Shown piece after piece: positions 3,001-6,000 of a DNA stretch of 11,674 bases. A program made the position numbers. Numbering within the stretch: position 1 is the first letter of the stretch; every line of letters begins with the position of its first letter. The stretch lies in the NCBI RefSeq assembly GCF_003334335.1, contig NZ_QOWQ01000063.1. One strand, 5' to 3'. The stretch is from Escherichia coli. Lineage in GTDB: Bacteria > Pseudomonadota > Gammaproteobacteria > Enterobacterales > Enterobacteriaceae.

Positions 3001-6000
3001 TTTGTGGGGCCGGAGCGTAACAATCACGGACATGCCGTTATCCTGAAACTCAGGGAACTCTATCCGACGCGTTATATCTACAACGAACAGCACCTTGACC
3101 AGGCATATGACGACGATACGCCCCGTCTTGGCTGGCTGACAACCCGCCAGAGTAAACCGGTCCTGACAGAGGGAATGAAAACGCTGCTGAATAACGGCCT
3201 GTCGGGGATCCGCTGGTCGGGCACATTATCAGAAATGAACACCTACGTTTATGACGCGAAAGGCTCCATGAATGCACAGGAAGGCTGTTTTGATGATCAG
3301 CTTATGAGCTACATGATTGCCCAGGAGATGCGCGCCAGAATGCCGGTGAGGGTAAAACAGAAAACGGATAAACGCAGAACCACACACTGGATGGCTCACT
3401 GATGAAAAATGAAACTAATACCATGGCGACGAAAAACGACAACGGAGCCACGCCGCGTTTTTCTCAGCGCCAGTTACAGGCGCTTTGTTCTGATATTGAC
3501 AGTCAGCCTAAATGGCGCGATGCCGCAAACAAGGCCTGTGCGTATTACGATGGTGACCAGTTGCCACCGGAAGTTCTCCAGGTGTTGAAAGATCGCGGTC
3601 AGCCGATGACCATCCATAACCTCATCGCGCCTACCGTTGATGGTGTTCTGGGTATGGAGGCCAAAACGCGGACTGATCTGTTGGTGATATCAGATGATCC
3701 TGATGATGAAACAGAAAAACTGGCTGAAGCTATTAATGCTGAATTTGCCGATGCTTGCCGCCTTGGAAATATGAATAAAGCCCGTTCTGATGCCTATGCG
3801 GAACAAATCAAAGCGGGGCTCAGCTGGGTGGAGGTCAGACGGAACAGCGATCCGTTCGGGCCTGAGTTTAAGGTGTCTACTGTCAGCCGGAATGAAGTGT
3901 TCTGGGACTGGCTCAGCCGGGAGGCTGATTTAAGTGACTGCCGCTGGCTGATGCGCCGCCGCTGGATGGATACCGATGAGGCAAAAGCCACATTTCCGGG
4001 AATGGCTCAGGTTATCGATTATGCCATTGATGACTGGCGTGGTTTTGTCGATACCACGGTTACTGAAGGCCAGCCCAGTCCGTTGATGAGTGCATGGGAA
4101 GAGTATCAGTCATGGGATCGACAGCAGAACGAATGGCTTCAGCGTGAACGCCGTCGTGTGCTGCTTCAGGTGGTTTATTACCGTACATTCGAGCGTCTTC
4201 CGGTGATTGAACTCAGTAATGGACGGGTGGTGGCCTTTGATAAAAATAATCTGATGCATGCGGTGGCTGTGGCATCCGGGCGGGTGCAGGTGAGAGTCGG
4301 GCGGGTAAGTCGTATTCGTGAAGCCTGGTTTGTGGGACCGCACTTTATTGTGGATCGCCCCTGCAGTGCGCCGCAGGGGATGTTCCCGCTGGTTCCCTTC
4401 TGGGGATACCGGAAGGATAAAACCGGGGAGCCTTACGGGCTGATTTCCCGGGCCATTCCGGCACAGGATGAGGTGAATTTTCGTCGTATAAAACTGACGT
4501 GGTTGCTTCAGGCCAAACGCGTGATTATGGACGAGGATGCCACCCAGTTGTCAGACAACGAGCTGATGGAGCAGATCGAGCGTCCGGATGGCATTATTAA
4601 ACTGAATCCGGCCCGAAAAAATCAGAAAAGCGTTGCTGATGTTTTCCGGGTTGAACAGGATTTTCAGGTTGCCAGCCAGCAGTTTCAGGTCATGCAGGAG
4701 TCGGAAAAACTTATCCAGGACACGATGGGGGTTTATTCCGCATTTCTCGGGCAGGATTCAAATGCATCGTCCGGTGTGGCGATCAGCAACCTGGTGGAGC
4801 AGGGAGCCACAACCCTTGCCGAAATCAACGATAACTACCAGTTTGCCTGCCAGCAGGTGGGAAGGCTGTTGCTCGCTTATCTTCTTGATGACCTGAAAAA
4901 GCGGCGCAATCATGCGGTGGTGATTAATCGCGATGATCGTCAGCGTCGCCAGACCATTGTCCTCAATGCTGAAGGTGATAATGGTGAACTGACCAATGAT
5001 ATTTCAAGGTTAAATACACATATTGCGCTGGCTCCTGTTCAGCAGACACCGGCGTTTAAGGCACAGCTTGCACAGAGAATGTCAGAGGTTATTCAGGGGC
5101 TGCCGCCTCAGGTGCAGGCTGTTGTGCTCGATCTGTGGGTTAATCTTCTGGATGTGCCGCAGAAACAGGAATTTGTCGAACGTATTCGTGCGGCGCTGGG
5201 GACGCCAAAATCACCGGATGAGATGACTCCGGAAGAGCAGGAAGCGGCAGCACAACAGCAGGCGCTGGAGCAACAGCAGGCAGAACTTCAGATGCGCGAA
5301 ATGACAGGCCGGGTGGCTAAACTGGAAGCAGAAGCTGCCAGGGCACGCGCGGCTGCGCAACGGGATAATGCTGGCGCACAACGGGATGTCGCCGCGGCAC
5401 AGGGACAGCGTTATGTGGATGCGCTTAACCAGGCACATACGGCAGAAATCATTACCGGCATACAGAATATGGAACAGGAGCAGGAAGTTCTTCAGCAACA
5501 GATGCTGCATACACTACAACAGCGGATGCATGAAATGCCGCTCTGAAAATCCTGAACTTAACGGAACCCCGTCATCGTACGGGGTTTTTTGTTTCCGGAG
5601 ATAAGCGTTCCGGGAGCGGTGCGCTTATTCGCGGGGGCAGCGATAAGCCTTATTTACTCAACCATTCGGATCTGTCCGATAAACAGACCATGCGGAGTTA
5701 TTTATGGATTTTGAATTTACGGGTGAAGAAACCCCGGAACAACTGGAAAAAATGCTGGAAGGGCTTGGGGATGTGGATATTGACGGTCACGAACAGGACG
5801 GCGTGACAGAGGCCGCCACAGAAAATCATGCGGATGAGGCAGCACAGACACAGACGGGCGATAACACTGCGGCACCGACGCCGGATGCCAGTGCTGAGCA
5901 GACGCAGGACGTGAAGGAGCCGGAGGCGAAGGGTGTGCTCACCCGCGATGGTAAACACGTCATTCCCTATGAAGTCCTTGAGGCTGAACGTTCCGGTAAG

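Follow-up and report, generated by a model that had tools for sequence, protein, structure and literature searches.

The Gln/Ala/Glu-rich C-terminus of a 933W/phi24B-type portal protein and the helical barrel of P22-class portals

Introduction

Is the compositionally biased end of a phage portal protein a structural domain, and if so, which? The question is raised by a stretch of Escherichia coli DNA of 11,674 nucleotides (contig NZ_QOWQ01000063.1 of assembly GCF_003334335.1; the whole stretch is called the window below), in which the portal gene (3402-5546, + strand) encodes a protein of 714 amino acids (aa) with a C-terminus rich in Gln, Ala and Glu. The original prediction, made from the sequence alone, was that the last ~110 residues are a coiled coil of the kind that forms the long helical barrel of P22-class portals. 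From this, and from a large terminase gene without any cos-like site nearby, it suggested a headful, short-tailed morphogenesis module joined to a lambda-like lysis cassette. The window (11.7 kb) covers the beginning of the late (morphogenesis) region in a lambdoid E. coli phage with a short tail, of the 933W/phi24B type (subfamily Sepvirinae). Its sequence identity is 99.5% to Escherichia phage PhiR5_2 and ~90-97% to more than 100 Stx1- and Stx2-converting phages (Stx, Shiga toxin).

Here we describe that the biased tail is very probably a dodecameric portal barrel of side-by-side C-terminal helices with a role in headful packaging. It must be noted that both the gene with its family and the barrel with its mode of packaging have been described before for what is essentially the same protein; the finding is right, but not new.

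Results

Nucleotide 5200 falls within codon 600 of the portal gene and the stop codon is at 5544-5546; the peptide quoted in the original prediction is an exact translation of this segment, and the bias it pointed out was borne out by the counts. Residues 600-714 (115 aa) contain 18.3% Q, 18.3% A and 12.2% E, the three together making up 56 of the 115 tail positions (49%) as against 136 of 599 (23%) in the body of the protein (Fisher p 4e-8). Among all 115-aa segments of the portal the richest begins at residue 586, and in none of 5000 whole-protein shuffles did any segment of this length equal the Q+A+E count of the tail. Aromatic residues are rare in the tail (0.9% vs. 7.8% in the body), and P and G are almost missing between residues 611 and 657. 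The mean Pace-Scholtz helix propensity was 0.34 kcal/mol for residues 611-711 and 0.29 kcal/mol for residues 611-662, compared with 0.56 kcal/mol for the body. The Q/A/E-rich tail is real, non-random and helical.

The AlphaFold2 model, calculated with a 111-sequence alignment, had a mean predicted local distance difference test score (pLDDT) of 89.2 and a predicted template modelling score of 0.81, with pLDDT above 90 over most of the core. In the tail it shows two helices (610-656 and 666-711) and between them a stretch of low confidence, 652-667, which may be an artefact of predicting a monomer or a real hinge. Following the model, the alignments and the composition, the tail can be divided into four segments, all on the + strand. 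The crown-to-barrel linker (residues 600-609, GTPKSPDEMT, 5199-5228) is Pro/Gly-rich and is followed by a family-conserved P-E-E-Q helix start, P610 being present in 74% and E611 in 69% of the family members. The proximal barrel helix (residues 610-662, 5229-5387) has the strongest helix propensity and carries a conserved heptad pattern described below. Next comes an indel-prone stretch (residues 663-672, VAAAQGQRYV, 5388-5417), which is missing in most family members and adjoins the break in the AlphaFold2 model. The distal helix (residues 673-711, 5418-5534) is less conserved and was predicted with lower confidence. Relative to most family members the protein has insertions at aa 663-672 (nt 5388-5417) and at aa 685-687 (nt 5454-5462), where column occupancy is 0.07-0.5; for residues 663-672 it is 0.11-0.52.

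The protein belongs to the P22-like portal family and has a barrel domain. Pfam PF16510 (P22_portal) was matched with an E value of 1.5e-129, residues 31-648 aligning with positions 7-594 of the 594-position model, and phrog_156 (portal) with 6.6e-253. This end-to-end match (3492-5345, + strand) comprises wing, stem, clip and crown together with the first ~40 residues of the barrel. When the single sequence was searched against the PDB with phmmer, the best solved relative was 8jov (E 5e-64), the portal-tail complex of Ralstonia phage GP4, which also ranked first with Foldseek; the P22 and Sf6 portals were not reached by this phmmer search. A family profile built from 110 diverse homologues and searched against the PDB with hmmsearch found GP4 8jov (2e-141), then Pan3, KHP30 and Pam1, and also Sf6 gp3 (7sfs, 4.4e-16, aligned to Sf6 residue 693) and P22 gp1 (3lj5, 2.1e-11, P22 residues 449-692). 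Since the alignments reach Sf6 residue 693 and P22 residue 692, they pass through the barrels. Consistent with this, hhalign of the family profile against P22 gp1 gave a probability of 98.4% (E 8e-15), pairwise BLASTP aligned residues 447-705 colinearly with P22 residues 416-672, and an identical TPEEQ motif, residues 586-590 in P22 gp1, is found at the start of the barrel helix. The top Foldseek matches, all with probability 1.00, were the podovirus portals of GP4, Pan3, KHP30, P22 and Sf6, in agreement with a portal fold. A long C-terminal alpha-helix straight after the crown, the mark of barrel-bearing portals, is indicated by the AlphaFold2 model, the helix propensity and the colinear P22 alignment.

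The best 120 matches of one homologue search were near-identical E. coli portals only. A HMMER scan of 1.84 billion representatives yielded 3151 relatives at E <=0.001, and tail statistics were calculated for 134 full-length representatives among the top 150 matches, which were at most 50% identical to one another. All 134 had a post-crown tail of at least 74 aa (median 136, maximum 430; median Q+A+E 41%), thus the tail is a conserved feature of the family. The idea that tail length (74-430 aa) could stand for barrel length was considered and dropped: in GP4 and in the F116-like phage phiC725A the long tails consist of ~90 helical residues and then Pro/Gly/Gln-rich segments with poor helix propensity.

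The most direct evidence comes from phage phi24B. Its portal gp72 ('Port', ADN68447.1) is identical to the 933W portal NP_049512.1, and the portal of the window matches them at 691 of 714 positions (96.8%) without gaps. A cryo-electron microscopy (cryo-EM) preprint of April 2026 on the phi24B virion divided the portal into six domains, one of them a barrel made of long alpha-helices, for which a reliable model, Pro610-Val696, was obtained in the ejected state, intact virions giving only a putative helical trace (bioRxiv 10.64898/2026.04.10.717836). The modelled range includes our proximal helix and stops at Val696 (nt 5489), within the distal one. The barrel prediction is thus already verified experimentally in this protein family at near-identity, and together with the Pfam match and the profile alignments through the P22 and Sf6 barrels, this supports the P22-class barrel proposed originally. 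In phage Sp5, deletion of ORF60, the portal orthologue, abolishes DNA packaging (PMC5155283). A loop left unresolved in the phi24B structure, RRNHAVVINRDDRQRRQTIVLNAEGDN (residues 501-527), is identical in the portal of the window.

The few differences from the 933W/phi24B portal are unevenly distributed: 14 substitutions in the 115 tail residues vs. 9 in the 599 residues of the body (Fisher p 9e-7), with a nucleotide divergence of 11.9% and 5.1%, respectively. Several lie near the possible hinge, G658S just upstream of it, then D662E, A665L and A666T. Either the constraint on the tail is looser or its recombination history is a separate one.

The original prediction had called the tail a coiled coil; its helicity was supported by the AlphaFold2 model and the propensity values, its coiled-coil character was not. 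Hydrophobic periodicity of 3.5 residues was not significant in the query tail (z -0.2), in the P22 barrel, in the family alignment or in any segment, and a canonical a/d coiled coil is not supported. Instead, between residues 622 and 662 of the family alignment, positions 622/629/636/643/650/657 are apolar, mostly Ala (mean 77% apolar), followed by 624/631/638/645/652/659 (66%) and by a weaker third position, 627/634/641/648 (48%); the other heptad positions of the proximal barrel are mostly charged or Gln. This 0/2/5 pattern appears as a 7/3-residue apolar periodicity, which was the sole significant period (family-wise permutation p 0.0004 for the family alignment, 0.006 for the query alone over residues 622-662). 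The tail of GP4 shows the same periodicity at a family-wise p of 0.06; the permutation test did not find it in the P22 barrel. A period-3.0 peak in single-sequence Kyte-Doolittle periodograms (z ~3, also in P22) fails correction for the 12 periods and was left uninterpreted. We infer that heptad position 0 on the one hand and positions 2 and 5 on the other lie on opposite faces of the helix and would form two seams touching the neighbours in a ring. Such two-seam geometry is what a wide multi-helix barrel requires, and the interface reported for Sf6, which is modest and dominated by van der Waals contacts, is in line with it (PMC9728967).

Headful packaging is supported for this phage lineage, although not by the argument with which it was first proposed. 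That no cos-like site lies nearby cannot be judged from sequence and is no evidence for headful packaging. A repeat scan of the intergenic region between Rz and terS (560-1000) gave weak two-copy matches only, none of which could be called pac or cos. The support comes from experiments on relatives. Phage 933W is a high-efficiency generalized transducer of chromosomal markers with co-transduction limits near its genome size (PMC3752737), and, according to the same paper, the ends of its virion DNA resisted sequencing, from which the original authors inferred terminal redundancy. The F116-like phages F116 and phiC725A perform generalized transduction and have circularly permuted, terminally redundant DNA; for phiC725A, the lack of fixed ends, a peak of coverage close to the terminase genes, ~10% terminal redundancy and in-situ headful packaging were documented (PMC5217972). 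For phage Lys19259Vzw, whose portal is 95% identical to that of the window, PhageTerm found no cohesive ends and assigned a 'Mu-like' type since the termini included host DNA (PMC7946995). By analogy with phiC725A, a 'Mu-like' result would also be expected from in-situ headful packaging.

The large terminase gene (terL, 568 aa, 1696-3402, + strand) matches phrog_2 and its product is 96.3% identical to that of 933W. Among solved structures T4 gp17 was closest, with a weak match (E 3.7e-8). TerL residues 29-313 (ATPase) are 43% identical to phiC725A TerL (E 2e-73); the C-terminal nuclease half did not align with phiC725A, and residues 372-542 weakly match the T4 gp17 nuclease. As judged from these alignments, TerL looks mosaic, and a relationship to the terminases of known headful packagers is suggested by them. 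BLASTP detected no similarity between TerL and P22 gp2, and Pfam and NCBIfam searches returned no match for TerL or TerS. The TerL of PhiR5_2 (99.5% identical) was annotated 'T4-like headful' by the depositor. The last base of the terL stop codon (3402) is the first base of the portal ATG, and this one-base overlap suggests translational coupling. The small terminase gene (terS, 268 aa, 909-1715, + strand; phrog_370, E 1.9e-119; product 92.5% identical to that of 933W) overlaps terL by 20 nt (1696-1715). It contains a 12-nt tandem repeat in 4.4 copies at 1045-1097, which encodes (I/T)DH(E/K) repeats, KIDHEIDHKTDHEIDHD, at TerS aa 46-62 and is adjoined by an acidic low-complexity stretch. TerS differences from 933W cluster at aa 96-110.

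As expected, the short-tailed module adjoins a lysis cassette of the lambda type, S-R-Rz/Rz1. The cassette ends with the Rz spanin gene (140-607, + strand) with embedded Rz1 (360-545), annotated in the same way in AU5Stx1, phi24B, 933W and PhiR5_2; in PhiR5_2, the closest record, holin S and lysozyme R are directly upstream of Rz. The Rz-terS spacer (607-909) is only ~300 bp and is devoid of the bor gene and the small open reading frame (ORF) present there in 933W, phi24B and AU5Stx1. Downstream of the portal gene there are a scaffold-like gene (5704-6711), the major capsid protein gene (6734-7948; TIGR04387, N4-gp56 family), several small virion protein genes and a collagen-repeat tail fibre gene (10101 to the window end, 11674). 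The tail-fibre ORF, which corresponds to the phi24B lateral fibre gp61, runs past the end of the window; an Ala/Glu/Ser/Lys-rich region is followed by long collagen-like G-X-Y repeats with one interruption. A terminator-like hairpin with a T-run (5563-5598, + strand; consensus match only) starts 17 nt past the portal stop codon, within the late operon and ahead of the scaffold-like gene. It is GC-rich and has a free energy of -18.5 kcal/mol, with a z value of only -1.7 vs. shuffles. In PhiR5_2 (PV340546.1) the locus 2192-4166, between the Q region and holin S, holds genes annotated 'unknown protein encoded within prophage CP-933V'; Stx phages carry stxAB at this position, and PhiR5_2 has no annotated stx there. 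The source of the window is probably a non-Stx member of the group.

Discussion

It is interesting to compare the portal and its module with the known systems. Apart from the bor gene present there between Rz and terS, the phi24B and 933W regions resemble the window in having a 714-aa portal and the gene order Rz, terS, terL, portal, scaffold, capsid protein. The phi24B virion has a T=9 capsid, two adaptor rings and a nozzle, and GP4 is its closest structural homologue (bioRxiv 10.64898/2026.04.10.717836), capsid and tail architecture being common to the two phages. The alignment with the GP4 portal runs on into the Q/A-rich tail, although identity is only ~27%, the GP4 protein is longer (781 aa) by virtue of an extra ~80-aa Pro/Gln-rich C-terminal extension, and only 547 residues are modelled in 8jov. 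The portals of the F116-like phages phiC725A, LKA5 and PA8 are ~35% identical over residues 31-597 (phiC725A 34%), and these phages share with the window the TerL ATPase domain and the gene order; the phiC725A portal (771 aa) differs in having a longer tail with a Pro/Ala/Gly-rich end. With P22 gp1 and Sf6 gp3 (3lj5, 5jj3, 7sfs) the portal shares the Pfam family, the fold, a post-crown helical barrel of ~70-120 aa, the TPEEQ helix start, headful packaging and the podovirus tail, and both the tail (net charge -7) and the P22 barrel (-3) are mildly acidic. Identity to these portals is only 15-23%; the P22 barrel is without the 0/2/5 Ala-seam periodicity and has a lower helix-forming tendency (0.45 vs. 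0.34 kcal/mol).

The original suggestion of a P22-like module therefore holds for the portal and fails for the rest, where TerL bears no relation to P22 gp2, the capsid protein belongs to the N4-gp56 type and the phi24B virion, with its T=9 capsid, is GP4-like. The co-linear terS-terL-portal-scaffold-capsid genes with GP4-type portal and capsid proteins are those of the GP4/F116/Sepvirinae T=9 head-tail module, and outside the portal the module belongs, by its TerL, capsid protein and tail, to that lineage and not to the P22-like one. That the claims on barrel, packaging and module hold is mostly due to experiments on near-identical phages.

In the explanation we favour, twelve portal subunits would assemble into a ring at the unique capsid vertex, each contributing one long alpha-helix after the crown, and the twelve helices would pack side by side into a tube that prolongs the DNA channel into the capsid interior, as reported for phi24B gp72 (bioRxiv 10.64898/2026.04.10.717836). 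Over the proximal ~50 residues the small apolar 0/2/5 seams would contact the left and right neighbours, with the charged and Gln residues turned to the lumen and to the packaged DNA. If the parallel with P22 and Sf6 holds, the barrel may guide the last-packaged DNA end, may take part in the response of the portal to head filling, and may adjoin internal ejection protein(s) leaving through it at infection. The P22 papers place that barrel at residues 603-725 and give its length as ~15 nm (PMC4992974) to 20 nm (PMC5290284). In solution and in procapsids most of it is unfolded, and it straightens when the head fills with DNA, an event considered part of the portal switch proposed to end headful packaging (PMC5290284). 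Its distal half seems disordered in virions and was proposed to bind ejection proteins, the last 50 residues being dispensable (PMC4992974). In Sf6 the genome end was located in the upper barrel (PMC9728967). In phi24B a candidate for such cargo is a 2811-aa protein, which is present in the virions, escaped detection in the maps and has been put forward as an internal ejection protein (bioRxiv 10.64898/2026.04.10.717836).

Several observations weigh against this explanation. The AlphaFold2 monomer interrupts the tail helix at 652-667 with pLDDT below 50, and the 3.5-residue periodicity is missing. The phi24B barrel was reliably modelled in the ejected state only, and residues 697-714 were not modelled (bioRxiv 10.64898/2026.04.10.717836). 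That work, a preprint, deals with an orthologue and not with the very sequence studied here, and 14 of the 23 amino acid differences between the two proteins are in the tail. The roles assigned to the barrel of this lineage are transferred from P22 and Sf6, whose barrels do not have the 7/3 pattern. Finally, PhageTerm typed the close relative Lys19259Vzw as 'Mu-like' and not as pac-type (PMC7946995).

Could the tail be a low-complexity, intrinsically disordered appendage, serving as a flexible spacer or left behind as recombination debris? Its strongly biased composition, its faster evolution relative to 933W (14/115 vs. 9/599 substitutions) and the low AlphaFold2 scores (pLDDT <50 at 652-667 and 56-84 beyond) would fit such a picture, as would the disordered-looking Pro/Gly/Gln-rich ends of the GP4 and phiC725A tails and the largely unfolded state of the isolated P22 barrel in solution and procapsids (PMC5290284). 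However, cryo-EM density permitted modelling of residues 610-696 in phi24B, the tail favours helix formation very strongly, with hardly any P or G at 611-657, and the heptad pattern is conserved across the family at ~30-40% identity; we give this possibility hardly any credence. A conventional two- to four-stranded a/d coiled coil, which would pair with the scaffold, the ~2800-aa ejection protein or the terminase instead of lining a 12-helix channel, is also very unlikely: no segment has significant 3.5-residue periodicity, the proximal 50 residues carry the 0/2/5 pattern instead, and the cryo-EM model describes a barrel. What speaks for it is found in the distal part, where the conserved apolar columns 680, 683 and 690 are partly a/d-spaced once the query-specific 3-residue insertion is removed, and in P22, where bubblegram work suggests in situ disorder of the distal barrel and ejection-protein binding sites in it (PMC4992974); the proposed internal location of the unseen 2811-aa phi24B protein points the same way. 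An a/d arrangement may apply to residues 697-714 only, and there it would add to the barrel explanation and not replace it.

The other alternative concerns packaging: the phage could use cos cleavage, with a barrel unrelated to the sensing of head filling. An HNH endonuclease gene between the terminase and portal genes often accompanies cos packaging, GP4 has such a gene at this place, and the window holds no proof of a pac site. Furthermore, many long-tailed lambdoid Stx phages, e.g. Lys8385Vzw, are of the cos type (PMC7946995). Nevertheless, we consider cos cleavage highly improbable for this phage in view of the efficient chromosomal transduction by 933W and its unsequenceable DNA ends, read as terminal redundancy (PMC3752737), and of the lack of fixed ends and the ~10% terminal redundancy in the F116/phiC725A group (PMC5217972). 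The headful T4 gp17 as the best solved TerL relative and the depositor's annotation of PhiR5_2 TerL argue in the same direction.

Within the barrel explanation a variant deserves mention. The P22 barrel (PMC5290284) and, like it, the Sf6 barrel (PMC9728967) were reported to need DNA for folding, in contrast to the phi24B barrel, which was modelled best in emptied particles. The Ala seams, the high helix propensity and this last observation leave room for a more stable barrel. It is conceivable, if rather doubtful at present, that the proximal barrel of the Sepvirinae/GP4/F116 portals is an intrinsically stable 'Ala-seam' alpha-barrel, which would stay folded without DNA and offer the ~2800-aa ejection protein a permanent conduit or docking tube instead of working as a pressure-dependent switch. 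If true, this would set it apart from the barrels of P22 and Sf6, which are induced by DNA and otherwise unfolded.

Conclusions

What this analysis adds to the published picture, the 0/2/5 Ala-seam heptad, the indel-prone hinge at residues 663-672 and a tail evolving faster than the core, are descriptive refinements, which could guide truncation or engineering of the protein and leave the overall picture unchanged. The near-identical module of 933W is that of a headful packager and efficient transducer, which has a bearing on how such prophages spread host genes horizontally. The biased C-terminus is a structural domain in a medically relevant family of Shiga toxin phages, not junk or a mis-called ORF, and its annotation can be regarded as settled.

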